The notes under the pieces are model-generated. The model saw only the letters and a list, made by a program, of their open reading frames with translations, ran no database searches and was not told the origin of the DNA. DNA of 38,424 bases from Candidatus Bipolaricaulota bacterium (GTDB taxonomy: Bacteria; Bipolaricaulota; Bipolaricaulia; M55B111). The position numbers were made by a program, and so were the translations under genes. The stretch spans positions 1 to 38,424 of the forward strand of contig JAIPHN010000003.1 of the NCBI GenBank assembly GCA_021735185.1, given 5' to 3'. Within the stretch, counting starts at the first letter, position 1, and each line of letters opens with the position of its first letter. Shown here piece by piece: positions 1,908 through 21,247 of this stretch.

Positions 1908-1945
1908 CGCCACCTCCTAACTTCCAGGAATTATTTGAATCTGGT

Positions 1946-2692: not shown

Positions 2693-2695
2693 CTT

Positions 2696-3298: not shown

Positions 3299-3467
3299 TT
3301 TCCCATGACCTCCGGTGAAATAATTTTAAGTTAAAAATCATTACCAAAAAAATATATTTCTATTTTAAATTATACCGATGAAAACAAGGTTATAGTGTTC
3401 ATAATCATCACAATTGTTATAACACTACTGTTTGACGATATCAAGTATTTCGTTTGTGAACTGGAAA

Positions 3468-3485
3468 AAGTGAAGATCATCACAA
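3468..3485. promoter_or_regulatory. Rex/CRP-like operator AAGTGAA-GATC-ATCACAA upstream of the acs operon
   Basis: 11 of 14 defined positions match the Rex consensus TTGTGAA-N4-TTCACAA; similar to the perfect palindrome at 9210-9229. Confidence 0.45.
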
Positions 3486-3623
3486 TCACTATTGTACTAT
3501 TTAAACTAACTTACATGGAAGAAGAACAGTTAACCCCGATCGGGGCCACTTTGCTAAGAGAAAAGAAGAAGCTGGGAATTGTAAATATAGGACTATAAAA
3601 ACTCTTTAACTGTCGATGAACTG

Positions 3624-3854
3624 CTAGCTTAGATGTTTATAGATGGCGGAGTAAAGACACCCGGATATACACTCCCCACAACCCACACACATGCGGGGCG
3701 ATTTGAGCATGGGGGGTTCTCCTTGTTCTTCCTGGATCAGAATATTTTTAGGACATTCCTTAACTGCCTGGCAACCATCGATCGCGCTTGATTGATAGCA
3801 ATTATCAACCTGGCATTTATCGTAATCAACGACAACGTATTTTGACTGGTCCAC
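3624..3854 (-). CDS. Small 4Fe-4S ferredoxin-like protein
   Basis: C-terminal CVGCGECISGC motif plus N-terminal C..C...C.AVKECP; GTG start with GGGAGGT SD. Confidence 0.8.
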   Translation of the reverse strand: MDQSKYVVVDYDKCQVDNCYQSSAIDGCQAVKECPKNILIQEEQGEPPMLKSPRMCVGCGECISGCLYSAIYKHLS

Positions 3855-3959
3855 GAATTACCTCCCTAAAACTTTACCTCGTTGCTTTACTGAAGACAAG
3901 AAATTTGAGACAGGTCTGCTGATCGTTTATTCTGAGATTATCCAGGGGAGGAGATAATA

Positions 3960-4187
3960 ATGAATTCAAACGGCGAGGAAGGTCCAGAAAAACTACGGGC
4001 TCTGTTAAAACACGGGGTAGAACACAACCAGGATCATCAGGAAGAGGTGAGGAAGTGGGCAGGTCAAGCCGGAGAACTGGGCGAAACGGAAGCGCAGAAG
4101 CTTTTGCTGGAGGCCGCAGAAATTTTGAATAAAGCCAATTCTACCATGTTCCGGGCCTTAGATGAACTGGAAAAAGGGGAGGATTAA
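3960..4187 (+). CDS. Small helical His-motif protein, putative Ni-handling accessory
   Basis: KLRALLKHGVEHNQDHQEE (HxxxHNxxH spacing on one helix face); strong SD; immediately upstream of cooT. Confidence 0.6.
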   Translation: MNSNGEEGPEKLRALLKHGVEHNQDHQEEVRKWAGQAGELGETEAQKLLLEAAEILNKANSTMFRALDELEKGED

Positions 4188-4188
4188 C

Positions 4189-4386
4189 ATGTGTCTATCT
4201 AAAGCGTACGCAGACAACGAAAAAACGGATGAGGCGTTGCTCGAAGATATAGCTTCAGTAGAGGTGAGAGACGGGAAGCTCCTATTTACGACGATCCTGG
4301 GTGCGACGGAGGAAATTCAGGGTTCAATTAAGAAAATAGACTTCTCGAAGAACGAAATATATCTGAAAAAGGACGAAGGGGAATAA
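4189..4386 (+). CDS. cooT: CooT-family nickel-binding chaperone
   Basis: Start re-assigned to MCLSKAY (SD GGGGAGG); N-terminal Met-Cys, 65 aa, beta-rich pattern ...G.IKKIDF; lies between acs and hydrogenase genes. Confidence 0.85.
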   Translation: MCLSKAYADNEKTDEALLEDIASVEVRDGKLLFTTILGATEEIQGSIKKIDFSKNEIYLKKDEGE

Positions 4387-4399
4387 AAACCGGAATAAT

Positions 4400-4885
4400 T
4401 CAGGAGGACGGAGTATTTCCGCCCTCCTCTTCTATAAGTGAAACGACTTTGTCTCGCAATTTTCCCAGGAGTTCTGGCAACTTTTCCTGCAGTGCGGGAG
4501 AGAGCTCGTCTCTAATAGGCATGTCTTTGGGGATTACTCCCATAATAAAGATCCTGTCGGGACGTTCTCCCATGGCTTCCGAGAGTTCTATTGCCTCAAG
4601 TAAGTTCGCGTCGTGGGTACTTCGTACCTCTATGTCACTGTCGACTTCATCCGGGTGAAAAAATACGGATTCACCGGGCTCTCCCTCGCTTCTAATGGCA
4701 TCGACTATTACCGCTGTCTCCAGATCCTTTAAATAATGGAGAATATTCATCCCCGACGTCCCGACTTCGTGAAATTCGACCCCGCCGGGGATATCCTTAT
4801 CCTGAAGGCGGTTCACCAGCACAATACCGATCCCATCGTCGCCTTTTAAAGTATTGCCGATTCCAAGTACGCCTAGTTTTGCCAC
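4400..4885 (-). CDS. [NiFe]-hydrogenase maturation endopeptidase
   Basis: VLGIGNTLKGDDGIG, IVDA and STHD motifs; follows the large subunit. Confidence 0.93.
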   Translation of the reverse strand: MAKLGVLGIGNTLKGDDGIGIVLVNRLQDKDIPGGVEFHEVGTSGMNILHYLKDLETAVIVDAIRSEGEPGESVFFHPDEVDSDIEVRSTHDANLLEAIELSEAMGERPDRIFIMGVIPKDMPIRDELSPALQEKLPELLGKLRDKVVSLIEEEGGNTPSS

Positions 4886-4905
4886 TTTCCCCCTCTCGGT
4901 CTTTT

Positions 4906-6225
4906 CTATTCTACGAAATCCACGTCAAGATGATGGGTGGAGCAGGAAATACAGGGATCGTAAGCGCGGACCAGCATCTCCAGGCTCAACTCTATCTCGT
5001 CTTCCCCTTTGTCGTTTTCTATTAGTTCTGGTGCAAGCTTCTCCATGTCTTGCTGGATATTTGCGTGATTCTGGTTTGTCGGGATAACGCAGTTGCCCGA
5101 CGTACAAATCCCCTCTTCGTTATAGGTATAATCGTGGAACAGTATCCCTCTGGGTACTTCTACTGCCCCTATACCTCTGCCCTTCTGGACATCAACTTGT
5201 GGCTCGTAGTATTCATTCTGAGGCTCGAGACCGTTGTCAAGCAGGGTATCTATGATGTTGATTGCATCCCGAACGTTGTGAACTACTTCCACCAATTGAG
5301 CGATGTTGTTCATGTACGGGTTGTGATTAACGGGCTTGAGATTGAATCTTTCCGCGACACCCTTTGCCATTGGCGATAGCTGGTCGTAATTGTTATTAAG
5401 CCTCGCCAGTGCTCCTACCATGTAGGAACTCCTGTTATTGCGCGCGAACTTGGCTGTAGATTGCTCTACAACGTATTCGTTTGTTATGTCTTCGTATTCT
5501 GTGATGGGCGAAACCCCGGTATCTGTAGAGCGTACCTGACCTTCGTAGAAGGCGTATTCTTCCTCATTTGTAAGAGAGATGAATTCCGTCTCGCGCGAGA
5601 AACCAGGAAATTTGTCCGCCTTTTCTTCACAGAGGTCGGCAACTGCCATTAAGTCGTTGAACGAATTCTTCAGCTTGTCCTGGAGTTGAAGGAGTTCATC
5701 TTCCGACGGGATCTTCGAAAATCCACCCGGAATTAACCTTTGCGGGTGCGTGGTTCGCCCGCAAACCATGTCCGACATTTCGTTTGACAGCCTGTGAAGC
5801 CTTATTACTGTTTTCAGTTCATCCGGGTGGGAGGATGCTAATGGTATTACCGACCCTTCACCCATCAAGTCGGGTAAGGCTAAGTAGCCAACGTGCAGGA
5901 CGTGACTCTGCATATTTTCAGCGTGGAGGGCCAGTTTCCTGAGCAATTTGTCCTGTTCGGAAATTTCTACCCCTAGAGCTGCCTCAGTAGCCTTAAGCGA
6001 GGCCAGGGTATGTCCGATGGAGCAAATTCCACATATCCTTGAAGTGATGTGATGTAGTTCCTTCCAGCTTTGATCCACGACCATGGACTCGAAGTATCGC
6101 GGCGTTTCTATAACCTGCCACTCGCATTTTTCGATCTGCCCATCGTTCGCATTTACCTTGATGTTTCCGTGTCCTTCCACCCTGGTGAGATATTCGACAT
6201 CGACATCTATTTTTTCGTCACTCAT
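4906..6225 (-). CDS. hydA: Group 3b [NiFe]-hydrogenase large (alpha) subunit
   Basis: TRVEGHG, L1 SRICGICSIGH, EVPRG, L2 RAYDPCISCSTH followed by an 8-aa cleavable tail; start at MSDEK after AGGAGG. Confidence 0.95.
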   Translation of the reverse strand: MSDEKIDVDVEYLTRVEGHGNIKVNANDGQIEKCEWQVIETPRYFESMVVDQSWKELHHITSRICGICSIGHTLASLKATEAALGVEISEQDKLLRKLALHAENMQSHVLHVGYLALPDLMGEGSVIPLASSHPDELKTVIRLHRLSNEMSDMVCGRTTHPQRLIPGGFSKIPSEDELLQLQDKLKNSFNDLMAVADLCEEKADKFPGFSRETEFISLTNEEEYAFYEGQVRSTDTGVSPITEYEDITNEYVVEQSTAKFARNNRSSYMVGALARLNNNYDQLSPMAKGVAERFNLKPVNHNPYMNNIAQLVEVVHNVRDAINIIDTLLDNGLEPQNEYYEPQVDVQKGRGIGAVEVPRGILFHDYTYNEEGICTSGNCVIPTNQNHANIQQDMEKLAPELIENDKGEDEIELSLEMLVRAYDPCISCSTHHLDVDFVE

Positions 6226-7042
6226 TATTGCGCTCCTCCTGTTGCCAGCCAAAGTAAAGGTTAAATTTATTAAGAACTTCTTCGACGGTCAATCCGTATT
6301 TGTCCAGTACTTTCTTATGGGCGTTCTCGTTCGGACTATCCACCAATCCGCGGCATCCCCAGCAGGTCGTGCCTTCGTTGACACATTTTGAGTCACAACC
6401 GGCACGAGTGACCGGGCCCAGGCAGAAAGGACCCTGTTCCGCTTGTGCCGCTCCGGGGGTTTGAACCTCCCTTTCGCTGGAGGATATCTGTGTTGAACCT
6501 CCGTTCCGGGCAAATACACATACGTTCTCGTTCATCTTGCACTCGACGCAGACGGGATAAGTCGGTATGTTTGGTTCTTTTCCCTGAACCAGGGACTCAA
6601 CTACATGAACGAATTCGTCCTGGTCTATTGGGCACCCATAAATGTAATGGTCCACCTCTACTACTGCGTCCACGGGCTTGGCTTTATCCCATGCTTCAAC
6701 TTTATCCGCATCGTCTCCGTAAACTCTCTCTTCTACGAGTTCTGGGTTCTGGGAATTTCTAATCGAATTTATTCCACCGATGGCGGCACATGAACCCAGG
6801 GCAACTACTATTCCGGCGTTGGTTCTTATTTCTCTAAGCCTTTCCGCGTCGTGATCCGAAGCAATTGAGCCTTCAATAAATGCTATATCGTAATCGTCCG
6901 ATTTTTGAGAAATTACCTCGCGGAAGTTTACGACTTCAACTAGCTCAAGCAGATCAAGAATTTTCTCTTCCAGATTTGCTACCTGTAGCTGATCTCCCTC
7001 GCAGCCGGCAAAGTCAAAGAAAGCAACTTTTGGTTTGCTCAT
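6218..7042 (-). CDS. hydD: Group 3b hydrogenase small (delta) subunit
   Basis: FAGCEGD, ALGSCA, YGCP, VCVECK...CLGPVTRAGC...CWGCRG Fe-S motifs; overlaps the hydA start. Confidence 0.93.
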   Translation of the reverse strand: MSKPKVAFFDFAGCEGDQLQVANLEEKILDLLELVEVVNFREVISQKSDDYDIAFIEGSIASDHDAERLREIRTNAGIVVALGSCAAIGGINSIRNSQNPELVEERVYGDDADKVEAWDKAKPVDAVVEVDHYIYGCPIDQDEFVHVVESLVQGKEPNIPTYPVCVECKMNENVCVFARNGGSTQISSSEREVQTPGAAQAEQGPFCLGPVTRAGCDSKCVNEGTTCWGCRGLVDSPNENAHKKVLDKYGLTVEEVLNKFNLYFGWQQEERNNE

Positions 7043-7890
7043 TATACGGCCTCCTCAAAACCTTTGACTCTTTCATAATTAAAGACGGGGCCGTCCTGGC
7101 AGGCGTAAAGTACTTCTTCGGCACCATTTATCTGGCAGTGTCCGCATTTACCGAGACCGCACTTCATTCTCCTTTCCAGAGATAGGTAGATATGTTCGTG
7201 CGGCAATTCCTTTTTATCCAGTTCTTCCAGGACGAATTGGTACATGACCGGCGGCCCACAAACTACGGCGTATGTATTATCCAGGTCTATATCTACACCG
7301 GGAATTAGTTCCGTGATAACTCCAATATTTCCTCCCCAGCAGACGTTATCCGGGCAGAAATCCACTGTAGCTTCATGATAGATATCCTGTCGCCTGGCCC
7401 AGTGGTTTACCTCGTCATCGAACATCTGTTCGCAGGGTCTCTTGCAGCCGTAAAGTATATTTATATCGTTATACTCGTCTCTTTTGTCCAGAACGTAATT
7501 TATCAAGGATCTCAGCGGAGCTATACCAAGTCCGCCGGCGATAAATAGCAGGTCCTGCCCCTGAAGTTCTTCCGTGGGAAATCCTTCTCCGTAGGGACCT
7601 CTTATACCAACAGTGCTGCCAATTGACTTCTCGTGCAGGGCATTGGTTACGTTTCCCACTGCTCTAACACATAGTTCGAACGAAGGCAGGCCCCTTGTGG
7701 GTGACGAAGTAACGGAGATTGGTGCTTCTCCTACTCCCGGGATCGATAATTCGACAAATTGACCGGGTTCCTGGTTTAACCTCTCTCCGTTTTCCAGTTC
7801 CAGCTCGAATAGCTTCGTATCGTCGGTTAGTTTTCTTTTTCCAATGATCCTTGCTTCCTGAGGATTGTAGAGTGAATCTTCCGCGTTCAT
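7042..7890 (-). CDS. hydG: Group 3b hydrogenase gamma subunit (FAD/NAD(P)-binding, 2Fe-2S)
   Basis: PGQFV...GEAPIS, RGPYG, IAGGLGIAPLRS, VCGPPVM, ERRMKCGLGKCGHC...CQDGP. Confidence 0.93.
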   Translation of the reverse strand: MNAEDSLYNPQEARIIGKRKLTDDTKLFELELENGERLNQEPGQFVELSIPGVGEAPISVTSSPTRGLPSFELCVRAVGNVTNALHEKSIGSTVGIRGPYGEGFPTEELQGQDLLFIAGGLGIAPLRSLINYVLDKRDEYNDINILYGCKRPCEQMFDDEVNHWARRQDIYHEATVDFCPDNVCWGGNIGVITELIPGVDIDLDNTYAVVCGPPVMYQFVLEELDKKELPHEHIYLSLERRMKCGLGKCGHCQINGAEEVLYACQDGPVFNYERVKGFEEAV

Positions 7891-8921
7891 GAGGTTCCCT
7901 CCTTCATTTGATTAAATACTTCGACTGGATCGGCTATATCGGGTAGACACTGTTCAGAACACCTGCCACAGCCGACACAGGCTATATCTCCGAATCTATT
8001 GTACATGTATCTTCCCTTCCTCATGTACCGATGGCGGTAACGAGCCGCTTTTTCTTCTCGGAAATTTTCGTCTCCTGCTACTTCGGCGAAAGCTTCCAGC
8101 ATACAGCCGTCCCAGGTTCGTAACCTTTCCCCTTCGGAAAGTGAAATATCGTTTACATCCTGGACGTCGAAGCAATAGCAGGTCGGGCAGACTAGATTAC
8201 AAGTTCCACAGCTGAGACAGTCTTCCGCGTTCTCTTCCCAGAATTCGTCGTTCTCGTAATAATTCTTCAATAAGGACGGTAACTCGAAGGGGTCGAACTT
8301 CGTGTCTTTTTTGAATTTTTTCGGTAGTTCCTCTTTGAACTGTTTTACTTTTCGAATTTCATCCGTGGTGATATCATCTACGGCTTGCCCGGCTTTTTCC
8401 AGTAAGTTACTTCCCTTGGAAGAGCCAACTTCTATTGCGTATCGATCCCCGATATCGGTAAGCATTATGTCGTAGCCGGTATCGGTGGTCGCAGTCCCCA
8501 TTGTGTGGGCAAAGGACCGGTCGGAAACGTTGGCCATGTTGACGCCGACTAATACCGACTGTCTTCTCTTTTCCAGGTAGTATGGGTCTTCATGTGTATC
8601 TTCAAAGACCTTGTCCATCTGCTCGATTGCGACGAGGTCATAAGGATGAATCCCCATAATTATTCTCGGGACAACTTGATTAACCGGAGTGGTCTCACCT
8701 TCATTCAAGTTGTACTCTACCAGCGTTTCCCGCTGGGGCATGAAGTATTTCTTCGGGGGGAGTATGGTTACGTCGTAGTCTAGCCGTAAGTCTTCGGCGG
8801 ATTTTAAGGGGTCAAAAGCAAATTCATTGCTTTTGGTCTGCACCCCCACCACTTCTCTGTCATCATTTTCGATCAGGTCATCTACAAATTCACTAAAATC
8901 GTTCTTGTTGATTGCTTTCAT
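7887..8921 (-). CDS. hydB: Group 3b hydrogenase beta subunit (4Fe-4S, AsrA-like)
   Basis: CLSCGTCNLVCPTCYCF and CVGCGRCSEQC; start re-assigned to MKAIN (SD GGGAGG). Confidence 0.92.
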   Translation of the reverse strand: MKAINKNDFSEFVDDLIENDDREVVGVQTKSNEFAFDPLKSAEDLRLDYDVTILPPKKYFMPQRETLVEYNLNEGETTPVNQVVPRIIMGIHPYDLVAIEQMDKVFEDTHEDPYYLEKRRQSVLVGVNMANVSDRSFAHTMGTATTDTGYDIMLTDIGDRYAIEVGSSKGSNLLEKAGQAVDDITTDEIRKVKQFKEELPKKFKKDTKFDPFELPSLLKNYYENDEFWEENAEDCLSCGTCNLVCPTCYCFDVQDVNDISLSEGERLRTWDGCMLEAFAEVAGDENFREEKAARYRHRYMRKGRYMYNRFGDIACVGCGRCSEQCLPDIADPVEVFNQMKEGTS

Positions 8922-9209
8922 TATGCCTCCCAGTTGTTCTGTGGTTTCGCGATCCGAATTCGACGGTCTGTCCAGTTCCCGCACAAAATGTACAAAGTAA
9001 GCTTAAAATTAGTGACCTATTTGGACTTCTTTTGACTGGTAAACTGGAGGGGTAAAGACGGCCGGAGTTACTGAGGAAGTTTTTAAAATCCCCTGTTGTA
9101 GGGCTTGACTCGTAAGATAAGCTGTTTAGCGATTGAGAATTCATTGCCATAGGTCTGCAACTCCGTTTTGAAAAAATACCCGCTCTGCCAGCTAAACCCC
9201 TCGGTCCGT

Positions 9210-9229
9210 AAAGTGAAGGTGTTCACTTT
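9210..9229. promoter_or_regulatory. Perfect palindrome AAAGTGAA-GGTG-TTCACTTT upstream of the hydrogenase operon (Rex/CRP-like spacing)
   Basis: 8-bp arms with a 4-bp spacer; core GTGAA-N4-TTCAC. Confidence 0.55.
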
Positions 9230-9489
9230 CGCTATGAAATTAAGATATAGGGGATAAATTTTCAAGTATAATCAGGGGAATTTCCTGGTATAATACAACT
9301 AATATATCTTTAATCAAATATTTGAATATTTATAACAGAAATTGTTTAAAAGTCTCTCTGAACCTGTAAGAATACGAGTGTATGGCGAGAAAATATAATC
9401 TTTCTAATCAAGTCTAAAATCTACCAAAATTTGCCGAGAGTGCCCCAGGGCACCCCCTGGGGGTGAATCGGCTATTTTGAGTCCAGCAA

Positions 9490-9717
9490 CCAGCACTCAA
9501 ATGAGTTTAGAACCCGGAACAAGATCATTTGCTTCGTCACATTTCAGGCTGCCATCCACCTTCTAAGGTTGAATTGTTCTCCAAGCACGTTTTCTCATTT
9601 GAGTGCTTGGTAGAGATACCTGGGTGAACATATGGTAATCGTATCCAATTGGGCTAAGTTAACCATGGAATTCGTTCTTTGTGCTTAACCAAGTTAGTCT
9701 TCTCAAGTGAGTGCTGG
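9490..9717 (+). ncRNA. Candidate ~230-nt rod-like structured RNA or repeat element (6S-like shape, unassigned)
   Basis: Closing stem 9490-9505/9702-9717; nested TGCCAT/ATGGTA, CACC/GGTG, AGGT/ACCT and CCAAGCAC/GTGCTTGG stems; followed by a T-rich run. Confidence 0.4.
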
Positions 9718-9774
9718 GTCAATTTTTGTTTTTTAAATCAGAGTTCATCTTTACATCGATTTTTTATATTATAT

Positions 9775-9795
9775 ACCCCGGCCTGTGGCCGGGGT
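9775..9795. terminator. GC-rich hairpin ACCCCGGCC-TGT-GGCCGGGGT, probable terminator
   Basis: Perfect 9-bp stem between the 3' end of sufU and the 9.5-kb element; the T-tract is weak and orientation is uncertain. Confidence 0.5.
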
Positions 9796-9956
9796 TCTTG
9801 ACTGCTTTACCAGCTCTCACCTATTCCTGAAATCCCCGATTTGATAAAATCGTTATTGCCAGCGAACTATGGGTTTTGGTCAAAGTAGCTGGGCGGTAAA
9901 TTGTAAAAAAATGAGGTAAAATAAATTCCTGGATAGCGCTCTGAGGATACTCTTCC

Positions 9957-10334
9957 TTAACTTTCTTCGGATAGTGCTTGCTTGAGAGCGTTTAAACCTA
10001 CGGCCATACATTCTTCTCTTTTCTTACCTGATTCGTTCATGTTGGCTTCGATATCGTCCAGAGTAAGTTCTTTTGCGTCACCAACACTTAACCCCCGGGC
10101 CAGCTGGGTTAATATAGAGGCCGAACCTATACATAAAACGCATCCGTAACCGTCGAATTTGATATCTCTGATAGAGCCATCTTTGATATTTAGTCCCAGT
10201 TTAATTTTGTCGCCGCAATTCGGGTTTTTCGCGGACCCCTGAAGATCAGGGTTTGGCAATTCACCTTTATTATGAGGGTTTTGCGAGTGGTGCATTAAAT
10301 TTTGATCGTAAATCTGGGGTCTCTCGTCGCTCAT
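9957..10334 (-). CDS. sufU: SufU/IscU-family Fe-S scaffold or sulfur-transfer protein
   Basis: NPHNKG, NPNCGD, FDGYGC..C.GSAS, R.EC; overlaps the sufS stop. Confidence 0.88.
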   Translation of the reverse strand: MSDERPQIYDQNLMHHSQNPHNKGELPNPDLQGSAKNPNCGDKIKLGLNIKDGSIRDIKFDGYGCVLCIGSASILTQLARGLSVGDAKELTLDDIEANMNESGKKREECMAVGLNALKQALSEES

Positions 10335-11557
10335 TTTTCACCACCTAAAACGTTTTTCGCCTCTTTGATGGCATCGACCAGACGATCGATTTCCGCTTCG
10401 TCATTGTAGACGTAAAAGCTCGCACGTGATGTGGCGTTTAGCTTCATCGCTTCATGTAAAGGTTGAGCACAGTGTAACCCTGCTCTTATTGCAATGTCGT
10501 CCAGGGAATCCAGCGCAGCTGCCAGATCGTGAGGGTGAACTCCCTCCAGATTAAATGAGACAAGCCCGCCTCTTTCTTCTCCTTTTCCCGGGCCGAATAT
10601 CTTTAGACCGGGGATTTTTTCTAGTTCCCTTAAAGCTTTTGCAGTAAGCTTGTTCACGTGTTTTCTGATCGATGACATTCCCAGTTTATTCAGGTAACTT
10701 AGAGTTTTACTAAACGCGATAATTTGAGCAATAGGCGGCGTGCCCGCTTCAAATTTCTGAGGAACCTCGTTCCAGGTGACTTCAGTTTTCGTATTACTTC
10801 GGACCATTTCTCCTCCACCAAATGGGGGCGGCATTTGTTCCAGTAATTCTTCCTTGCCGTAAAGAATCCCCAGTCCGGTGGGCCCAAGCATTTTATGAGC
10901 CGAGAAAGCCAAAAAATCTACATTATAATCCCTGACATTGAACTGCCTGTGTGGCAACCATTGAGCTCCGTCCACGACAGCCAGAGCACCGTTTTCATGG
11001 GCAAGATCCGTTAACTTCTTTACCGGGTTGTATGCTCCGATAACGTTTGAAATAGCGGGAAAGGCCAACGCTACAGAATTGGAAGAGAGTTTGGCTTCTA
11101 AGTCTTCCATATCCAGCTGTCCTTCCCTGTTGACACGAACGTATTCTAGCTGGAACCTGTTTGAACTCTCCGCCATTATTCTCCAGGGAAGAATATTGCT
11201 ATGGTGGTCCATTTCCGTAACCAGTATTTTACCATTCCTGTCCTTCCAGTGGTGCAGGGAATAGGCTAAGATGTTTAAGGATTCGGTACAATTTTTAGTA
11301 AAGACTATTTCTCGGCTCGATTCTGCCCCGATAAAATCCGCGGTTTTTCTTCGCGTATATTCAAATTTATTGGTTGTTTCTTCGGCCCGCTTATATATTC
11401 CCCGATAAACGCTGGTTCCAAGTTCATGATAATAATTAATTAATTCCCGCGTAACTGGCTCGGGGGTCATGGAAGTGGCAGCATTGTCTAGATAGATTAG
11501 ATCCTGATTTTTCAGGGCGGGAAAATCATCTCTTACGCTGTTAACATCTAGCATCAA
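10331..11557 (-). CDS. sufS: SufS-type (group II) cysteine desulfurase
   Basis: YLDNAAT, HHSN, DGAQ, FSAHKMLGPTG (PLP Lys), FEAGTP, RAGLHCAQP. Confidence 0.95.
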   Translation of the reverse strand: MMLDVNSVRDDFPALKNQDLIYLDNAATSMTPEPVTRELINYYHELGTSVYRGIYKRAEETTNKFEYTRRKTADFIGAESSREIVFTKNCTESLNILAYSLHHWKDRNGKILVTEMDHHSNILPWRIMAESSNRFQLEYVRVNREGQLDMEDLEAKLSSNSVALAFPAISNVIGAYNPVKKLTDLAHENGALAVVDGAQWLPHRQFNVRDYNVDFLAFSAHKMLGPTGLGILYGKEELLEQMPPPFGGGEMVRSNTKTEVTWNEVPQKFEAGTPPIAQIIAFSKTLSYLNKLGMSSIRKHVNKLTAKALRELEKIPGLKIFGPGKGEERGGLVSFNLEGVHPHDLAAALDSLDDIAIRAGLHCAQPLHEAMKLNATSRASFYVYNDEAEIDRLVDAIKEAKNVLGGEK

Positions 11558-12070
11558 TATTTGGAAACCCCTTTAAGCTTCAAATATAAGTATATAAACA
11601 CTACTTTTTGATCCATTATAACATAGAATTCAGCAAGTTCCTACTGATAAATGAGTTTATCGAAAAAAGTATAGTATCCCCTCGGTACCCAAGGACACTT
11701 CGGTAAATTAATTAGAAGCCATTAAAAATTAGATCTTTATGCTCTTAGACCATCTAGACCATTCACCTGAATTGTCTTTTTCACGATTATCTTGTCCATT
11801 AAAAGCAAAAGAACAGCAATTTTATCCTATATCCTTATTTCTTCCTTTTCAAACTTCTAAAAGGCCTTTCCTTATGTATTTTTGCTAAGAAATCCAGGAT
11901 GAGGATGACCAGTTGCACAGGGATATAGTGCTCAGTAAAAAGTTGCCCCCTATTATTTTTACAGTTATACGGTTTGAAAAGTTTTCTGTCAGGTGGTAAA
12001 CTCATCTCTAGCTTGGCGGGATAAGCTATCCCACAAAAACTAATCCTTACTTTCAGGAGGAACTTAATAG

Positions 12071-12988
12071 ATGAAAAAGCTTTCCTCAACATTATTGATT
12101 GGACTAATTCTAGTTCTCTTTACTGTCGGTTTAGTAAGTGCTCAGGCGGAAAGAACTGTCACGGATAGCCTTGGGCGGGAAGTTACGATCGAAGAAGTAC
12201 CGGAAAGGGTCGTTACCACTATCGTATCAACCACGGAGATAGCTCTCGATCTCGGCCTGGATGAGAGGTTGGTCGGGGTGCCGGATCTGATCCAGTATCT
12301 CTCTTACGTCCCGGAACTGCAGGAAAAGGCTGAGAAGAAAGAAAAGGTAGGGGGATTCAAACTCTCAATTGAGAAGATCGCTTCTCTCAACCCCGGCCTC
12401 GTCATACTGGATGCGTCGGCTCAAAAGGATATGGTCAGTAAAATAAAGGATATCGGAGCCACCGTTTATGCAGCGGGGAGCAGGGATATAGAATCCGTTC
12501 GGGAGACGATTCTGGAAATTGGCTACCTTACAGGCAAACTGGACCGGGCCCAGAAGATCGTCGGAGAGATGGTTTACAAAGAGACGCAGCTCAGGGATGC
12601 AGTCGCCAAACTGGACGAGAAGAAGAGCACCTTCTACACGATAAGCAAGAGGATGTACACTGTCGGTGATAATACCTTTGTTGGGACGGCGCTGCAGTTA
12701 GCGGGCCTGAATAACGTATTTGGGGAAATTTCCGGGTTTAAGCCCGTCAATACTGAGGAAATAATCAAAAAGAACCCCGAGCTGATAATCGCTACCGAGG
12801 ATATGGGATTAACCGCGGAAGATTTGCGGGAAGATAAAGGTCTGAAAGAAGTAAAAGCTGTTCAGAATGGCAATGTCGTTCTGCTTCCCACCGGCGAGGA
12901 TTCCATGTTAAACCAGCCGGGGACGAAGATAATCGATGGAGCGATAAACCTATTTGAAAAAATATACGACACGGAAGTCAATCTCTAA
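12071..12988 (+). CDS. btuF: Corrinoid ABC transporter substrate-binding protein
   Basis: Signal peptide, VTDSLGREVT...PERVV, EKIASLNP, V..EEIIKKNPELII; first gene of the cob operon. Confidence 0.85.
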   Translation: MKKLSSTLLIGLILVLFTVGLVSAQAERTVTDSLGREVTIEEVPERVVTTIVSTTEIALDLGLDERLVGVPDLIQYLSYVPELQEKAEKKEKVGGFKLSIEKIASLNPGLVILDASAQKDMVSKIKDIGATVYAAGSRDIESVRETILEIGYLTGKLDRAQKIVGEMVYKETQLRDAVAKLDEKKSTFYTISKRMYTVGDNTFVGTALQLAGLNNVFGEISGFKPVNTEEIIKKNPELIIATEDMGLTAEDLREDKGLKEVKAVQNGNVVLLPTGEDSMLNQPGTKIIDGAINLFEKIYDTEVNL

Positions 12989-13048
12989 TGACAGTTGTGG
13001 GTTGCCGGAGAAGTTCAGCTGCTATACCTGATATGTCCCTTAAGAGTT

Positions 13049-14074
13049 ATGAATAGGGCGAAACCGAAAGTCACTTTTGCAACGCTATTTGTCCTTCTGG
13101 CTTTTGCTTTCCTGGTCGGGGTTGCAATCGGACCCGTCAGTATACCGTTAGGCAAAAGCTTGCTCATTCTAACGGACAAACTTCCTCTGCTGGAGTTCTC
13201 CGGCCTGCCCTCGAACTTCCAGACGATAATTTTTGACCTCAGGTTGCCGAGAATACTGACCGGGTTACTCGTCGGAAGTTCACTTGCGGTTTCGGGAACC
13301 GTGATGCAGGGTATTTTTAGAAACCCTCTGGCCACCCCCTATATTTTAGGGGTTGCCAGCGGTGGATCGGCGGGAGCTGCAACCGTAGTAGTGCTTGGGT
13401 TTACGTCTAATTTTGCCCTGCCTATTGGAGCTTTAATCGGGGCTTTATCCGCCGTAACAATCGTTTACAGGATTAGCTGGAGCAGGGGCTCTACTTCTTC
13501 ATACACGTTAATTCTTGCGGGGGTCGCCCTTTCTTCGCTTTTTTCGGCCCTTACTACGGCTTTAATTTTTATCGCCGGGCCCTATCAGCAGCATCGCGTC
13601 CTTTTCTGGATGATGGGCGGTCTCTGGCGGTCAAGCTGGACTTTATTCAAAATACTACTCCCGATTGCAACAGTCGGGGCCGGAATTATTTTTGCCTGGA
13701 GCCGGGATTTGAACGCCCTGGCGCTTGGTGAAAGCGCGGCCGAGCATCTTGGAGTAAAACCAGCGCTGGTCAAGAAAACCTTGCTCGGACTGGCGACTGC
13801 TATTACCGCAGTCTCCGTAGCCGCAGCCGGTTCGATCGGGTTTGTTGGTCTGGTTATTCCCCATATTATGCGAATGATACTCGGACCCGACCATAGAATC
13901 CTCCTGCCGGCGGCTGCTCTCGGCGGAGGAGTATTTTTGATCTACACTGACGTTCTTGCGAAGACGATAATGCAACCGGTGGAAATGCCGGTGGGTGTGA
14001 TTACTGCTTTCTTTGGTGCTCCGTTTTTTCTCTATCTTTTGAGGAAGAAAATCGTTGGAGGTAGGATGAGATGA
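13049..14074 (+). CDS. btuC: Corrinoid ABC transporter permease (FecCD/BtuC)
   Basis: LRLPR, QGIFRNPLA.PYILG, GESAAEHLG, GSIGFVGLVIPH; start taken as MNRAK. Confidence 0.9.
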   Translation: MNRAKPKVTFATLFVLLAFAFLVGVAIGPVSIPLGKSLLILTDKLPLLEFSGLPSNFQTIIFDLRLPRILTGLLVGSSLAVSGTVMQGIFRNPLATPYILGVASGGSAGAATVVVLGFTSNFALPIGALIGALSAVTIVYRISWSRGSTSSYTLILAGVALSSLFSALTTALIFIAGPYQQHRVLFWMMGGLWRSSWTLFKILLPIATVGAGIIFAWSRDLNALALGESAAEHLGVKPALVKKTLLGLATAITAVSVAAAGSIGFVGLVIPHIMRMILGPDHRILLPAAALGGGVFLIYTDVLAKTIMQPVEMPVGVITAFFGAPFFLYLLRKKIVGGRMR

Positions 14075-14856
14075 AGGTAAAAGTAGACGATTTACGCTTT
14101 TCCTATAACGGGAAGGGCGTGCTGGAAGGCCTCGATCTTACTGTTAGAAAGGGTGAATTTATCGGGATTGTCGGACCGAACGGTTCCGGTAAAACTACCC
14201 TGTTGAAAAATATTGGTGGAGTGCTGGATCCGGACGATGGAGGGGTTTATCTGGGTGAAAAAGAGCTATCTTCGATTCCGATAGGAGAGGTTGCAACCAA
14301 GGTCGCGGCACTGGAGCAGGAAACGAGCGTGGGCTTCGATTTTACAGTCAGGGAAGTCGTGGAAATGGGCCGCTTCCCTCATCTGGATAGATTCGAGAGG
14401 CATTCGGAAGGCGACCTTGAAGCAGTTGATAGGGCAATCGAGATTACGGACCTGGAAGAGTTTTCCGAGCGGTACGTAAATCAGCTAAGCGGGGGAGAGA
14501 AACAGAGGGTATTTCTGGCGCTCGCTCTGGCACAGGAACCCGAACTTCTGTTACTGGACGAACCTACCGCAAGCCTGGATATCAATTACCAGATCAAGAT
14601 AATGGAAACCGTGAAGTGCCTGCAATCTGAAGGTTTGACGGTGATAGCCGCAATTCACGACCTCAATCTTGCAGCTCAATACGCTGATAGGGTTGCCCTG
14701 ATGGCGGATGGGGAGGTAAAAGTAGCGGGAGAGCCGAATGACGTGCTGACAAAAGATAATATTGCAAAAGTGTTCGGGGTAGATGTAGAAGTCGAGGACT
14801 CTGAGGTAAAGGGGACGATCCATATTTTTCCGAAGACTGAAACCCTGAGCAAGTAG
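14071..14856 (+). CDS. btuD: Corrinoid ABC transporter ATPase
   Basis: GPNGSGKTT, LSGGEKQR, LLLDEPT, HDLNLA; ATGA overlap with btuC. Confidence 0.9.
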   Translation: MKVKVDDLRFSYNGKGVLEGLDLTVRKGEFIGIVGPNGSGKTTLLKNIGGVLDPDDGGVYLGEKELSSIPIGEVATKVAALEQETSVGFDFTVREVVEMGRFPHLDRFERHSEGDLEAVDRAIEITDLEEFSERYVNQLSGGEKQRVFLALALAQEPELLLLDEPTASLDINYQIKIMETVKCLQSEGLTVIAAIHDLNLAAQYADRVALMADGEVKVAGEPNDVLTKDNIAKVFGVDVEVEDSEVKGTIHIFPKTETLSK

Positions 14857-14864
14857 GGGGTAAT

Positions 14865-15425
14865 ATGGAAGGTTCTGAAGAAGATAGGGAGAGAGTTGGG
14901 GGTAACGTTCTGGTTCATACTGGTGAAGGCAAAGGGAAGACCACTTCCGCAGTCGGGCAAATAATTAGGGCGGAAGGACATGGGTTAAATACCAGATATA
15001 TAAGCTTCTTTAAGGGCAATGAGGAACGATTTTCCCGGGGTATATTTAAGGTTATGAAGAAACTGGGAATTCCCGTCAGGAACTTCGTCCATGATCACCC
15101 CGACTTTGGCCGAACCAGCGAAGAAGAGGCGCGAAATGGCTGCAGGAAGGGCCTGAAGTATCTAAATAGCCTTTTCAGGGGGGAAGACGAAGTGCCCGAT
15201 CTTTTGGCTCTCGACGAGGTAAACATCGCCCTGGATGGGGGATGGATAGAGGAGGAAGAATTTATTTCACTGCTTGAGATGAAACCGGATAATCTGGAAT
15301 TGATCTGTACGGGAAGAGGCGCCCCCGAAAGCCTGATCGCGGAAGCGGATCTGGTCAGTCGAATCGAGAACGTGAAGCATTTTTACGACGAGGGCGTGGT
15401 GCAGCGGCCGGGTTATGAGTACTGA
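14865..15425 (+). CDS. cobO: Cob(I)yrinic acid a,c-diamide adenosyltransferase (BtuR/CobO family)
   Basis: HTGEGKGKTTSA, LALDEVNIA, ELICTGRGAP, KHFYDEG...GYEY. Confidence 0.93.
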   Translation: MEGSEEDRERVGGNVLVHTGEGKGKTTSAVGQIIRAEGHGLNTRYISFFKGNEERFSRGIFKVMKKLGIPVRNFVHDHPDFGRTSEEEARNGCRKGLKYLNSLFRGEDEVPDLLALDEVNIALDGGWIEEEEFISLLEMKPDNLELICTGRGAPESLIAEADLVSRIENVKHFYDEGVVQRPGYEY

Positions 15426-16907: not shown

Positions 16908-17963
16908 TTGGACGAATTTGCGGATATGACGAGTGAGATCGACCGAGTTGACGGAGAAATAATTGATAAAGCTTCGAAAAGGATGGATAGCCTGACTAAA
17001 CCAAAGGGTAGTCTCGGCCAGCTTGAGAGGTTGGCCATAAAAGTAGCTGGTATAACTGGAAAGTTAAACCCTTCTCTGAACCATAAATATTCCTTCGTTT
17101 TTGCCGGTGATCACGGGGTGGCCGCTGAAGGTGTCAGTGCATACCCACAGGAAGTTACGGTCCAGATGCTGGCCAACTTCATCCACGAGGGAGCTGCGAT
17201 AAACGTGCTCGGGAACCAGGTCGGGTCCGAGGTCGTCGTCGTTGACGTCGGTGTCGCTTCAGACGATATTCCTCCTTCGGTGATCGACGAGAAAATTAAC
17301 AGGGGGACGGATAGTTTTACCGGCGGACCCGCGATGTCCAGAGAAGATGCTCTAGCTTCGGTTAAGGTCGGATACCGCGTAGTTGAGGAAGTTGCAGAGA
17401 CAGGTCTTGATCTACTGGGTCTCGGAGACATGGGAATCGGCAATACCACGCCGAGCAGCGCGATTACCGCTATTATGACTGACAGCAAACCGGAGGAGGT
17501 AACCGGAAGAGGCACGGGAATAGACGAGGAGTCCCTGCGAGAAAAGATAGCCGTTGTCGAAGAAGGTCTGGAGGTGAACCAGCCTGATCCGACCGATCCG
17601 CTGGACGTTTTGAGCAAGGTTGGGGGGTACGAAATCGGTGCAATCGCCGGGGCGTATCTAGCTGGAGCAGCCAATAACGTACCGGTATTGCTGGACGGTT
17701 TTATCACGACAGCCGGGGCGCTAATTGCCCACGCGATAGAGCCAGGAGTAGCGGATTACATGATAGCCTCGCATAATTCCGTCGAAAGAGGCCACGAAGC
17801 CGCTCACGAAAAGCTGGGGCTAGATCCTTTACTGGATTTGAATCTCCGACTGGGTGAAGGAACTGGTGCTGCCCTTGCGATGCATCTCGTTCAGTCCGGT
17901 GTTTCCGTTTTGAATGATATGTACACGTTCGAAGAGGCCGGGGTGTCTCCGGGAGGAAGCTAA
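16908..17963 (+). CDS. cobT: Nicotinate-nucleotide:dimethylbenzimidazole phosphoribosyltransferase
   Basis: LTKPKGSLGQLE, FAGDHGV...GVSAYPQEVT, GDMGIGNTT, TGRGTG, LRLGEGTGA; start re-assigned to TTG at 16908 after GAGAGGTG. Confidence 0.95.
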   Translation: MDEFADMTSEIDRVDGEIIDKASKRMDSLTKPKGSLGQLERLAIKVAGITGKLNPSLNHKYSFVFAGDHGVAAEGVSAYPQEVTVQMLANFIHEGAAINVLGNQVGSEVVVVDVGVASDDIPPSVIDEKINRGTDSFTGGPAMSREDALASVKVGYRVVEEVAETGLDLLGLGDMGIGNTTPSSAITAIMTDSKPEEVTGRGTGIDEESLREKIAVVEEGLEVNQPDPTDPLDVLSKVGGYEIGAIAGAYLAGAANNVPVLLDGFITTAGALIAHAIEPGVADYMIASHNSVERGHEAAHEKLGLDPLLDLNLRLGEGTGAALAMHLVQSGVSVLNDMYTFEEAGVSPGGS

Positions 17964-17964
17964 A

Positions 17965-19077
17965 TTGATAGAGGACTCGTTTCTGGACGAAATAAAACCC
18001 CCGCGACACGGGGGAAGAGTAGAGGAAGTGGCTCGGGAGCGAGGTATTAGTCCCGAGGAAATAATCGATTTCAGTGCAAACATGAATCCGCTGGCACCCC
18101 CGGAAAGCCTTGGAAGTTATCTTGCTGATTCGGTCAGTTCACTCGAATTATACCCTGATGATAGTTACGGTAAATTTCGAAATGCCGCGATCGATTTTCT
18201 CGGAAACGAGTCCGGGGCCAAGCTCGAGCGGAAAAACGTCATTCCCGGTAACGGTTCCGTCGAAATATTCAGGCTATTCATTCGAGCCATTGCGACTGCA
18301 GGTGCCAGTACCGTGCTTGTTCCATTTCCGACGTTTAGCGAATATGCCCTGCAGTCCAGGTTGTTTGGCCTGGAAGTGGATCGGAAGAAGTATCGGGAGC
18401 TGTTCGGACTCGACGAGGCAATTTTAAGCGGTTACGATGCCGTATTTCTCTGTAATCCGAATAACCCGACGGGAACTCTGCGCGAAAGAGAAACGCTGGT
18501 TAAATTCCTGGAAAAAGCCCGGGCTGCCGAGACTTTTCTCGTCCTGGACGAGGCTTTCAACGAGCTTTCTTCCCCCGGGGCGAGCCTGGCGGGATTCGTA
18601 TATGGTTTTCCAAACCTGATAATTGTTAGGTCTCTGACAAAAGCTTTTACGGTTCCGGGATTGCGGATAGGTTACGGGTTAGCCTCAGGTAAACTTGCCG
18701 ATAGGATGGAAAAACTTCGTCCGCCGTGGAATCTCAATTACCTCGCTGCCAGCATAGGAAGGCGTTTTCTGGAGGAAGAAAAAGAATTACTGAAGAGGTC
18801 CAGAGAATACCTGGAAGGGGAAAGGAAACGGTTGCGGGAGAAATTAGAGGATCTGGGATTCTCGGTTTACCCGAGCTCCGCGAATTACCTCCTCTTTCGA
18901 ACGAAAGAAACTGGTTTGACGGCAGCGGAAATCGTTGACCGGTGTCTGGATTATAACGTGCTTGTTCGAAACGCGGATTCGTTTTACGGGGTTGACGAGT
19001 GGCATGTCAGAGTGGCGGTAAAAAAGCGGTCGGATAACGAGAAGTTGGTACGGGCTCTTGAACAAGCAGTTGATTGA
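17965..19077 (+). CDS. cobD: L-threonine-O-3-phosphate decarboxylase
   Basis: HGG, DFSANMNP, GNGS.E, CNPNNPTG, LDEAF, RSLTKAF.VPGLRIGY; TTG start after GGAGG; cob operon context. Confidence 0.9.
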   Translation: MIEDSFLDEIKPPRHGGRVEEVARERGISPEEIIDFSANMNPLAPPESLGSYLADSVSSLELYPDDSYGKFRNAAIDFLGNESGAKLERKNVIPGNGSVEIFRLFIRAIATAGASTVLVPFPTFSEYALQSRLFGLEVDRKKYRELFGLDEAILSGYDAVFLCNPNNPTGTLRERETLVKFLEKARAAETFLVLDEAFNELSSPGASLAGFVYGFPNLIIVRSLTKAFTVPGLRIGYGLASGKLADRMEKLRPPWNLNYLAASIGRRFLEEEKELLKRSREYLEGERKRLREKLEDLGFSVYPSSANYLLFRTKETGLTAAEIVDRCLDYNVLVRNADSFYGVDEWHVRVAVKKRSDNEKLVRALEQAVD

Positions 19078-19085
19078 TAGTTTAA

Positions 19086-19519
19086 CCGTCTTCCGGGCTT
19101 TCCGGGCCGAGAAATTTCCGACTCGCGTGCTCCAACTGTCCTGTTAACTGCGCTTTACTTATTGAGGGAAATAGGACCCACAAGAACTGGTTATACTTTG
19201 TCATGAAAATATCCCTCCCCGGCACTGAATTGAACATGAGTCCGGTTTACGCCGCCATAGGTCTGACCGGTACAGCAATCCACGTGAAAACGGTTAACGG
19301 ACTATATCTACTTAACCGTTCTCAATTTAGTGCCGGGTCGGTCGGACATATGCGCCGCGTCGCTGGAATTTTCTCGGCCCTCTGCCCTTATCTTGCCACG
19401 CGGAGAAGGTAATCTGGAGGACGGGCTCTAGATCGGATCTTCAGCTTTTCCGGGGCAGTACTTTCTCCATGTGCGCATTGACCTGATTTTGCCAATGGTG
19501 AGTGATAGGCTTTTAGAGC
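19086..19519 (+). ncRNA. Candidate large structured RNA of unrecognised class filling the cobD-cbiB gap
   Basis: Nested long stems 19086-19096/19414-19424, 19104-19119/19365-19380, 19218-19233/19322-19337, 19289-19297/19312-19320 and 19138-19145/19170-19177; pseudoknot 19164-19169/19212-19217; second domain 19425-19432/19512-19519; wobbles are G-U on the + strand. Confidence 0.65.
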
Positions 19520-19608
19520 GGGCTTTTCTTTCTGAAAACAAGAAGGGATAATAAGGTATGGTAATTGGTTATGAGAAAATTCAGGAAACAGAGGGTTGAG
19601 GATCGGCA

Positions 19609-20550
19609 GTGGATTTATTTGAGTTAAGGGTTCCGGCCAGCCTGGTAGTATTGCTTGGAAGTCTCATTCTGGACCTCCTGCTCGGGGAGCCGCCTGAGAT
19701 CTTCCATCCGGTTGTATGGATGGGGCGGATGATTGATTTTCTGAAAGAGAGATTCGATCAGTTTGATAACCGGAGGGTGTCCGGGAGTCTGGTGGCCTTA
19801 ACCATAGCGTTCGGTTCGGGTGGGCTGACCTACCTGCTCTTCGAATTAATCATAGTTGTCTGGAAACCACTGGCGCTATTGGCGGGAATTTACCTGATGA
19901 AGTCGACTATATCAATCAAGAGTCTGCTGGGAGTGGCCCGGAAGGTTGGCGAGAAGATCGAGTCCGATTCCGACCTCGCCCGGGAGGAGCTGTTGGCCCT
20001 CGTCGGTCGTGACCGTTCGGACCTTTCCCGGGCGGAGATGCGGTCCGCCACGATAGAATCGCTCTTCGAAAACCTCGTGGACTCCGTCATTACTCCTTTC
20101 TTTTACTTTTTCCTCGGCTCACTGGTTGATTTTAGGATCGGAGTGACGCTGGCGGTCGCGTATAAAGGTATCAATACAGTTGATTCGATGCTCGGTTATA
20201 GAACTGGGGATCTGCTGGATTTCGGCTTCTTTGGCGCCCGGCTCGACGATCTGTTAAACTGGGTGCCCTCGCGGTTCGCAATCTGGTTTATCGCGCTCGG
20301 GGCGTTCTCGCCCTGGCCCGCTGTAGTAGCTTTTAAGGAGTGGGACGCTACACCGAGCCCTAACAGTGGCTGGCCGATGGCCGCGGCGGCGGGTGCGTTA
20401 AAGGTGAAATTGGTTAAGCAAGATACTTATACTTTAGGTCCGGAATACGATTTGCCCGGTTCCAGCGATCTAAATAAGGCAATAAGCCTTGCAGGCAGAG
20501 CGATAGGTTTCTATATTTTTCTGCTTTTCGCTCTGTTATTTGTGTTTTGA
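19609..20550 (+). CDS. cbiB: Adenosylcobinamide-phosphate synthase
   Basis: DLLLGEPP...HPVVWMG, LVGRD, ESLFENLVDS, YKGINTVDSMLGY, ARLDDLLNWVPSR, SPNSGWPMAA.AGAL. Confidence 0.95.
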   Translation: MDLFELRVPASLVVLLGSLILDLLLGEPPEIFHPVVWMGRMIDFLKERFDQFDNRRVSGSLVALTIAFGSGGLTYLLFELIIVVWKPLALLAGIYLMKSTISIKSLLGVARKVGEKIESDSDLAREELLALVGRDRSDLSRAEMRSATIESLFENLVDSVITPFFYFFLGSLVDFRIGVTLAVAYKGINTVDSMLGYRTGDLLDFGFFGARLDDLLNWVPSRFAIWFIALGAFSPWPAVVAFKEWDATPSPNSGWPMAAAAGALKVKLVKQDTYTLGPEYDLPGSSDLNKAISLAGRAIGFYIFLLFALLFVF

Positions 20551-20659: not shown

Positions 20660-21247
20660 ATGGAGCTTGCTCGGGAGATTTCTCAGTTAAAGGTAAGGAG
20701 CTTGAAGAAACTTAATCGTGTCGAAGAGGACCTCGGTCTATGGGGGATGGTTCTTCTTAGCTTCGGCTTAGCCGGTTTGACCGGCCTTGCCGCGCAGATT
20801 CGAATTCCACTCCCTTTCAGTCCCGTACCGGTTACCGGCCAGGTTTTCGTGGTATTGCTCGTTGGCTTCACGTTCGGGAAAAAGATCGGTCTCGGGAGTC
20901 AGGTCTTTTACGCGGGACTCGGTGGACTTGGACTTCCCTGGTTTACGGGAATGGCCGGAGGGTTCGCGACTTTAGCCGGCCCGACTGGAGGATATATCCT
21001 CGGCTTTATCCCGGCTGCGTACCTAATTGGATGGATTTCACAGGGTCGTGAATTGAAGGAATGGTTACCGACTTTCGGGATAGGTTTAGTCGGATTGAGC
21101 GCGATATATCTTTTCGGAACAGTCCAGCTTTCACTGTTCCTGCAAACAGGTCTTCTGGAGACGATAAAAGTGGGGTTGATTCCGTTTATCTGGATAGATC
21201 TTCTAAAAGTTACTCTGGTTTCGTTGCTCGTCGGTAAATTTCACTAA
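20660..21247 (+). CDS. bioY: BioY-family ECF S-component (biotin-type)
   Basis: AQIRIPLPFSPVPVTGQ, G..GLPWF, GPTGGYILGF; multi-TM. Confidence 0.9.
   Translation: MELAREISQLKVRSLKKLNRVEEDLGLWGMVLLSFGLAGLTGLAAQIRIPLPFSPVPVTGQVFVVLLVGFTFGKKIGLGSQVFYAGLGGLGLPWFTGMAGGFATLAGPTGGYILGFIPAAYLIGWISQGRELKEWLPTFGIGLVGLSAIYLFGTVQLSLFLQTGLLETIKVGLIPFIWIDLLKVTLVSLLVGKFH

Follow-up and report, generated by a model that had tools for sequence, protein, structure and literature searches.

What fills the 531-nt gap between cobD and cbiB (between 19077 and 19609) in a corrinoid gene cluster of a Candidatus Bipolaricaulota bacterium, and does it belong to the operon in which it lies? The window, meaning the whole stretch of DNA that was analysed (38,424 nt), is contig C35 of a genome of 1.3 Mb in 112 contigs that is 71% complete (G000). 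A sequence-only reading had seen nested helices and a pseudoknot in the gap and had proposed, as its main reading, that a single new large non-coding RNA (ncRNA), a ribozyme or a riboswitch goes with the corrinoid operon. The conserved structure is part of a family of interspersed repeats rather than of the operon: positions 19088-19388 are one copy of a non-coding palindromic repeat of ~210-300 nt, here called M1, and the gap holds one of its many genus-wide copies. On balance, M1 is probably a DNA element resembling the repetitive extragenic palindromic (REP) doublets that form hairpins (REPINs) and the MITEs (miniature transposable elements with inverted repeats), mobilised in trans via a fold-back intermediate and with no specific link to cobalamin. 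For annotation, this means that the gap should be called neither a riboswitch nor a unique ncRNA, since a repeat insertion appears to have split a tight operon.

Copy number and taxonomic range

The stretches 19092-19136 and 19338-19380 have further copies in the genome of the window, where they lie on contigs C104, C21, C65 and C52. When 40 relatives were searched by DNA (14 of the same genus, 4 of other genera of the family and 22 of other families of the class), every one of the 14 congeneric genomes was matched, often repeatedly and often at contig ends, and no match was found in the 4 genomes of other genera or in the 22 of other families. Counted with up to two mismatches, the 5' block is multi-copy: its 22-nt core was found 141 times over the 15 genomes of the genus (0-23 per genome), against no occurrence of a reversed-pattern control in the same genomes. 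Among 185,579 species genomes (one genome per species) the exact 22-mer is present in 87 stretches, and the 80 that were listed all come from metagenome-assembled genomes (MAGs) with titles naming Candidatus Bipolaricaulota, Bipolaricaulia, Acetothermia or 'uncultured Thermotogae'. Viral contigs gave no exact match for two motifs, and plasmid and phage collections gave no match to M1. M1 is confined to one uncultured genus, probably a member of Candidatus Bipolaricaulota, all genomes of which are incomplete MAGs (71-90% complete).

An nhmmer profile run on 161 loci returned 115 unique matches, of which 61 are unique full-length M1 copies falling into size classes of ~210-220 nt and ~250-300 nt. 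In contigs of four DNA runs, the summed depth over the M1 end blocks was 646-15,119 in three of the four runs, vs ~0-15 over the flanks; other organisms contribute to these sums, which are no measure of copy number. In the same contigs, the listed joints belong to other copies that differ in their interiors, and not to excisions. Among RNA runs, none matching 19078-19560 was listed. The repeat family is probably behind many of the contig breaks in MAGs of the genus.

Anatomy of the window copy

The boundaries and modules of the window copy are as follows, with the strand of the repeat being a matter of convention only.

19088-19388, + by convention only: complete M1 copy, 301 nt, long form; aligned end to end with 35 other copies, boundaries from flank comparison
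19092-19136, +: conserved 5' block, with the left terminal inverted repeat and a near-invariant GAGAAATTTCCGACTCGCGTGCTC; 93-98% identity to copies of other species
19104-19119, +: left arm of the terminal inverted repeat (closing helix); partner 19365-19380
19137-19200, +: variable 5' region, without consensus structure; no pairs by RNAalifold on 56 copies; 43.8% identity to the orthologous copy in genome G009
19201-19217, +: conserved middle block; family consensus TTATGGAAATATCCCTC, window TCATGAAAATATCCCTC; columns nearly invariant
19218-19337, +: hairpin module H, stem 19218-19233/19322-19337; long form in the window
19338-19388, +: conserved 3' block (TCGGTCAGACATATGCGCCGCGTCGCTGGAATTTTCTCGG...), with the right terminal inverted repeat 19365-19380; 86-98% identity to copies of other species
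19389-19608, +: unique spacer from M1 to cbiB, outside the repeat; common to G009 only; 84.3% identity over 19387-19608

In the 5' block a near-invariant GACTCGCGTGCTCAAAC follows the left terminal repeat, and the variable region behind the block, ~65 nt long, is moderately conserved. Module H measures either ~41 nt (short form) or ~110-125 nt. The 3' block (TCGGTCAGACATATGCGCCGCGTCGC...) closes with the right terminal repeat, and positions 19338-19386 are 98% identical to the orthologous copy of G009.

M1 does not code. A small protein starting at a conserved ATG in the middle block was considered and rejected: the ATG is present in 42 of 56 copies, the frames of the 3' block are distributed 30/13/13, and the resulting open reading frames (ORFs) run from 1 to 65 aa. 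Two ORFs in the gap gave no match to Pfam.

The spacer between M1 and cbiB has no other copy in the window's own genome. Its identity to G009 (84%) slightly exceeds that of the flanking coding DNA (76-82%). A possible hairpin within it, GGAGAAGGTA/TACTTTCTCC (~19407-19416 with 19460-19469), has one compensated change in G009 along with one broken pair and one deletion, a comparison of two sequences only that is not evidence.

Structure of the gap and its conservation

The inverted repeats that the sequence-only reading had picked out are all present in the window where it had placed them. An inverted-repeat search returned 19104-19119/19365-19380 and 19218-19233/19322-19337 (16 nt and 94% each) together with 19285-19297/19312-19324 and 19164-19172/19209-19217, and an outer 11-bp pair, 19086-19096/19414-19424, can be read directly in the sequence. 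Compared with dinucleotide shuffles, the 483-nt gap sequence folds well on the + strand (-165.3 kcal/mol, z -3.17, 0 of 100 shuffles as good) and on the - strand (-157.1 kcal/mol, z -3.29, 1 of 100 as good). The structure is real at the level of this single sequence; since the gap beats its shuffles equally on both strands, folding is silent on which strand matters.

Comparison of copies shows which helices belong to the family. Across 36 aligned copies, 95.1% of the cells of the RNAalifold structure are paired, vs 28.7-53.7% with slid partners, and 13 pairs have changed on both sides, vs 7.0±1.3 in shuffles (reached in 0 of 500). This covariation support comes from two of the helices proposed earlier, the terminal helix (19104-19119/19365-19380) and the H stem (19218-19233/19322-19337), both of which are conserved and covarying, whereas the remaining ones are not conserved. 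In 56 copies, the H stem has compensatory changes at 16 of 18 positions and 77% of its cells are Watson-Crick, with slid controls paired at 24-52%. The terminal helix is conserved across the same 56 copies as an 18-bp helix, with 12 of 13 inner positions at least 91% Watson-Crick and a T.T mismatch retained in 54 copies.

Genome G010 has an M1 subfamily of its own; its variant 5' block is present in at least 17 copies, and copies of this subfamily stand alone (L188-L201) and not inside a second repeat described below as B. Five positions of the otherwise invariant inner helix differ here from the main form and all five are compensated, the T.T mismatch being kept at the same place, and the outer stems of this form, 9-17 nt long, are copy-specific and complementary.

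The other helices fared differently. The outermost 11-bp helix loses 4 of its 11 pairs in the orthologous copy of G009, and helix 19138-19145/19170-19177 is paired in 57% of cells, within the 35-62% of slid controls. The supposed pseudoknot is no commoner than chance, with a complement of at least 5 nt to ATATCCCTC in 11 of 56 copies vs 10.5 expected from shuffles. What had been read as a second domain is not part of M1, as 19389-19608 lies outside the repeat, and its closing helix keeps 6 of 8 pairs in G009. The tip helices within H are specific to the window copy.

It had also been argued that the non-Watson-Crick pairs, being G-U on the + strand, point to a + strand transcript. This argument fails family-wide, as the wobble counts show no + strand excess: G.U vs A.C on the + strand is 33 vs 64 of 1008 cells in the H stem, 11 vs 22 in the terminal helix and 34 vs 41 in a looser alignment of the hairpin, and in the H stem non-wobble mismatches outnumber wobbles. 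An excess of + strand G.U pairs on the RNAalifold structure was not counted for the + strand, because that structure was derived on the + strand, which makes the count circular, and its main G.U pairs never vary. When whole elements are folded, 32 of 39 copies give the better energy on the - strand; because the + strand is richer in C than in G, this does not speak for an RNA of the - strand. No transcribed strand is identified by the data.

The earlier description of the structure as unrecognised held. A scan of 18900-19750 against Rfam matched no family, even at E<=10, and at that threshold the gap gave no match to the large ncRNAs and ribozymes (RNase P, tmRNA, group I and II introns, HEARO, OLE, GOLLD, ROOL, hammerhead, twister and others).

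Placement and probable mobility of M1

The two genes that bound the gap in the window are listed here.

17914-19077, +: CobD-type class I/II aminotransferase, upstream gene; Pfam Aminotran_1_2, E 9.5e-47
19609-20550, +: CobD/CbiB family protein, downstream gene; Pfam CobD_Cbib, E 1e-78

The same junction was surveyed in 10 genomes with a CbiB match, 9 of them with upstream sequence. In four of these nine (G006, G011, G014 and G001) the site is empty and cobD directly abuts cbiB, while M1 lies at the junction in the direction of cbiB in three (the window's own genome, G009 and G012), inverted in G003 and as an inverted partial copy in G007. The presence of four empty junctions beside forward, inverted and partial ones makes it likely that the tight cobD-cbiB operon is the original state and that the junction was hit more than once. 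The protein-less mobile element that the sequence-only reading had offered as an alternative is close to these data.

Throughout the genus, M1 copies are intergenic. For the 61 full-length copies, the upstream gene runs in the same direction in 29 cases and in the opposite direction in 21, and the downstream gene in 26 and 24 cases, respectively; orientation relative to the neighbouring genes looks random. The orthologous copies of the window's genome and G009 are 92-98% identical in their end blocks and ~44% in their interior, with 84% in the unique spacer downstream, and this exchange of interiors between retained ends points to recombination between copies via the conserved blocks. Deletion derivatives, in which the 5' part of M1 is joined to the right end of another repeat, are found as well. 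No target duplication was seen at the inspected ends of M1 or B, and in the comparison made for this purpose the G009 sites orthologous to two other copies of the window's genome fall at contig ends. None of the 115 unique matches has an ORF within or adjoining M1, an absence that the incompleteness of the MAGs leaves unproven.

Repeat B, nesting and candidate enzymes

Many M1 copies are nested in a second repeat, B, which has complementary ends, two hairpins (Pa and Pb) and invariant junction strands, with M1 sitting inside Pa. The left-end motif of B is found in the left flank of 28 of the 61 M1 copies, and 15 of these also have the right-end motif. In other B copies the place of M1 is taken by a plain Pa hairpin or by one of the H type. 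Its outermost ~18 bp are copy-specific and more than 90% Watson-Crick in most columns, pairing falls to noise beyond them, and the wobbles in this stem number 19 G.U vs 29 A.C on the + strand. B shares the range of M1, occurring in 13 of 14 genus genomes with one match in a neighbouring genus, and one marginal match (E 8.8e-4) was obtained elsewhere in the phylum among the other 166 genomes searched. Rfam gave no relevant match at E<=1 on six loci holding M1 and B, and no family matches B.

Without inserts B is ~165 nt long, and its junction strands share the direct repeat GAGGCCGAG; examples are L003 (G000:C104) at 1240-1660, L166 (G000:C52) at ~1500-1740 and many other loci. The possibility that B was inserted into pre-existing palindromes was rejected, as the search for 'empty' palindromes in the window's genome and the 161 loci turned up none. 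At the window site M1 stands alone, without B. By eye, 19405-19500 had looked like a diverged right half of B, and the profile test of this likeness was negative: a profile built from 39 right halves of B found nothing in 19000-19700 at E<=10 with filters off.

Small REP-like hairpins are inserted beside M1 in 12 of the 61 copies. Y1/RAYT-like genes (PF01797; RAYT, REP-associated tyrosine transposase) occur in 3 of the 15 genomes, and two such loci were read. At L163 (G012:C76, ~600-2500) and L164 (G002:C118, ~100-1100), the Y1_Tnp genes lie between clusters of small GC-rich REP hairpins of the type GCAGGCCGGGTCCCCGTGCCCGGCCGGTAG, the classical layout of a REP-RAYT system. Motif scans found no M1 or B motif beside the Y1 genes at these two loci.

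Other candidate enzymes are equally detached from M1. Of the DDE families, PF01609 is present in 2 of the 15 genomes and PF13358 in none; IS110 (PF02371) is present in 6 and the TnpB-type PF07282 in none, and the M1 profile has no match in 16 loci around DDE_Tnp_1 and IS110 genes (L172-L187). On the reverse strand of L187 (G008:C21, ~380-1920), an IS110 gene with a 436-aa frame follows a B left end and the 3' arm of an H-type hairpin is cut short, so that the H hairpin of this B repeat was apparently the insertion site of the insertion sequence (IS). At L176, another IS110 gene lies ~370 nt past a B right end. Copies inside a hairpin or beside a B end suggest that IS110 targets these repeats and does not carry them.

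Weighing the explanations

According to the explanation preferred here, M1 would have inserted into an originally tight cobD-cbiB junction and would have spread as DNA, mobilised in trans. The intermediate may have been a single strand folded back on itself, with one arm rebuilt from the other, a route that has been proposed for REPINs. Such arm regeneration would explain stems that are copy-specific yet complementary, the conserved T.T mismatch, the lack of target duplication and the lack of a wobble strand bias. Several observations nevertheless weigh against a REPIN/MITE-like element. No autonomous element or adjoining ORF accompanies any of the 115 unique matches; Y1/RAYT genes are limited to 3 of 15 genomes, and it is another, small REP that lies on either side of the two examined; PF13358 and PF07282 are found in 0 of 15 genomes and PF01609 in 2, and the IS110 genes of 6 genomes only insert in or beside the repeats. 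M1 is also larger and less symmetric than REPINs, with ~110 nt of non-palindromic sequence on its 5' side, and its three invariant non-palindromic blocks have the look of an RNA core, or of one that binds protein, rather than of spacer. In B the stems vary and the junctions are invariant, which is the usual signature of a structured RNA and not of transposase-bound ends. In addition, the mobility of M1 is suggested by the comparison of copies and not by a transposition event observed directly, and all the genomes are incomplete MAGs (71-90% complete).

The main rival holds that M1 and B act as RNA, whether as multi-copy small RNAs, a ribozyme or a guide or scaffold for an unidentified protein, with the DNA copies spreading as a consequence of the RNA or being individually maintained. 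Covarying stems and invariant non-helical blocks across 14 species speak for it, as do an inner helix that is fully compensated between subfamilies with its mismatch conserved, and the three-way-junction form of B, in which variable but compensated stems meet invariant junction strands; the missing Rfam match, target duplication and partner transposase would also fit. However, the wobbles favour neither reading (+ strand G.U 44 vs A.C 86 over the two M1 helices, 19 vs 29 in the B stem) and are exceeded by non-wobble mismatches, the orientation relative to neighbouring genes is random, the ~65-nt 5' region has no consensus structure, and the modules occur in many combinations and deletion derivatives. 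This makes an RNA function rather unlikely, though it is the alternative that deserves most attention. A related and likewise rather unlikely proposal is that M1 and B represent a previously undescribed class of self-structured replicators in which the selected unit is the folded single strand, either RNA or single-stranded DNA (ssDNA). The invariant core, the conserved T.T (U.U) mismatch and the exchangeable hairpin modules could be read in this way: each round of copying would re-template one terminal arm from the other, yielding copy-specific complementary stems, and the hairpins of older modules would be where newer ones insert. If this were true and the active form were RNA, the family would amount to a mobile RNA without a protein, or to a ribozyme or guide scaffold of a new kind, restricted to Bipolaricaulota.

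Less probable again is that the copies are intergenic structural elements retained by the host for stems that are useful in situ, for instance as transcription barriers, mRNA stabilisers or sites for nucleoid proteins. Such roles have been proposed for REP sequences, bacterial interspersed mosaic elements (BIMEs) and enterobacterial repetitive intergenic consensus (ERIC) repeats. Copies that are strictly intergenic, long GC-rich stems conserved in situ, persistence across 14 species of the genus with a mostly vertical distribution, and a function independent of orientation, which fits the random orientation, would all suit this idea. On the other hand, the cobD-cbiB junction works without the element in four genomes, 18950-19700 contains no terminator-like site, neither invariant non-palindromic blocks nor nested insertions are necessary for such roles, and the idea leaves room for mobility. 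That the gap encodes a riboswitch or leader responding to cobalamin and peculiar to the corrinoid operon is scarcely credible. The placement between cobD and cbiB and the good folding energy are in its favour; against it, neither a cobalamin riboswitch nor any other Rfam family matches at E<=10, M1 is present at scores of unrelated intergenic sites, and the site is empty in four relatives and occupied by an inverted (or partial) element in two, so that neither position nor orientation is fixed.

Comparison with known systems

The DNA element favoured above would have its closest precedent in REPINs, which RAYT Y1 transposases mobilise. These elements are described as extragenic, with conserved inverted ends that form a hairpin, a stem and a spacer whose two sides change in compensation, and target duplication that is not obvious, and an asymmetric hairpin intermediate is proposed from which the symmetric element must be rebuilt (PMC3116915). 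M1 is similar in being non-coding, extragenic, multi-copy and lineage-restricted, with inverted ends that form a hairpin with compensatory changes, and RAYT-like genes flanked by REP hairpins do occur in the genus. It differs in its length of 210-300 nt, its asymmetry, its three invariant non-palindromic blocks, its exchangeable inner hairpin and its nesting in B, and at the two RAYT genes examined the flanking repeat is a different, smaller REP, with neither M1 nor B beside them.

Among bacterial MITEs, Correia/NEMIS, ERIC and RUP are examples of small, non-coding, intergenic elements with terminal inverted repeats and many copies, and they have the potential to fold when transcribed. M1 shares with them its terminal inverted repeats, small size, lack of coding capacity and many interspersed copies. 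In contrast to them, neither a duplicated target site nor a parent IS sharing its ends was found for M1, and the outermost ends of B and of the G010 form of M1 vary by copy yet stay complementary. Terminal repeats that are bound by a transposase normally show the opposite pattern and do not vary in this way.

BIMEs are mosaic clusters of REP-type motifs in enterobacteria, and the combination of different modules in several intergenic arrangements is reminiscent of them; M1 and B modules, however, are much longer and are nested in each other's hairpins rather than set side by side. The bridge RNA of IS110 and the omega RNA of IscB/TnpB (HEARO) serve mobile elements as guides or scaffolds. Variable segments on a conserved scaffold, the many copies and the IS110 transposases in 6 of 15 genomes recall these systems, but no recombinase or nuclease gene adjoins any of the 115 unique M1 matches, HEARO and all other Rfam models are without a match, PF07282 is found in 0 of 15 genomes, and the IS110 genes lack M1.

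Among the matches listed in searches of the literature on Bipolaricaulota repeats and on bacterial MITEs, nesting and RNA structure, the parts of the texts that were returned do not describe this family. Going by these listings and by Rfam, M1 and B form an undescribed, lineage-restricted family of nested palindromic repeats in a phylum without a cultured model. Copy-specific complementary terminal stems, a mismatch conserved across subfamilies and invariant non-palindromic cores set it apart from ordinary MITEs and REPINs, and these three features make its copying mechanism (fold-back ssDNA or RNA, and by which enzyme) a worthwhile question.

Further observations on the window and related loci

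Other genes near the gap encode CobS, CobT (DBI_PRT), BioY and two CbiA/CobQ-type amidotransferases. Rfam detected no cobalamin riboswitch anywhere in the corrinoid gene cluster of the window, and a search of 18950-19700 for terminator-like sites found none; the sole match at Rfam gathering level in the whole window is a tRNA gene at 37558-37645 (-).

At locus L008, a 76-nt match to the tmRNA model (2286-2361, - strand; model positions 1-374; 42.1 bits, gathering score 47) lies ~500 nt from an M1 copy in G002. The BioY gene of the window (20660-21247, between cbiB and the next amidotransferase) has no counterpart at the syntenic locus of G009, where the matches flanking its position are spaced ~119 nt apart, vs ~754 nt in the window.

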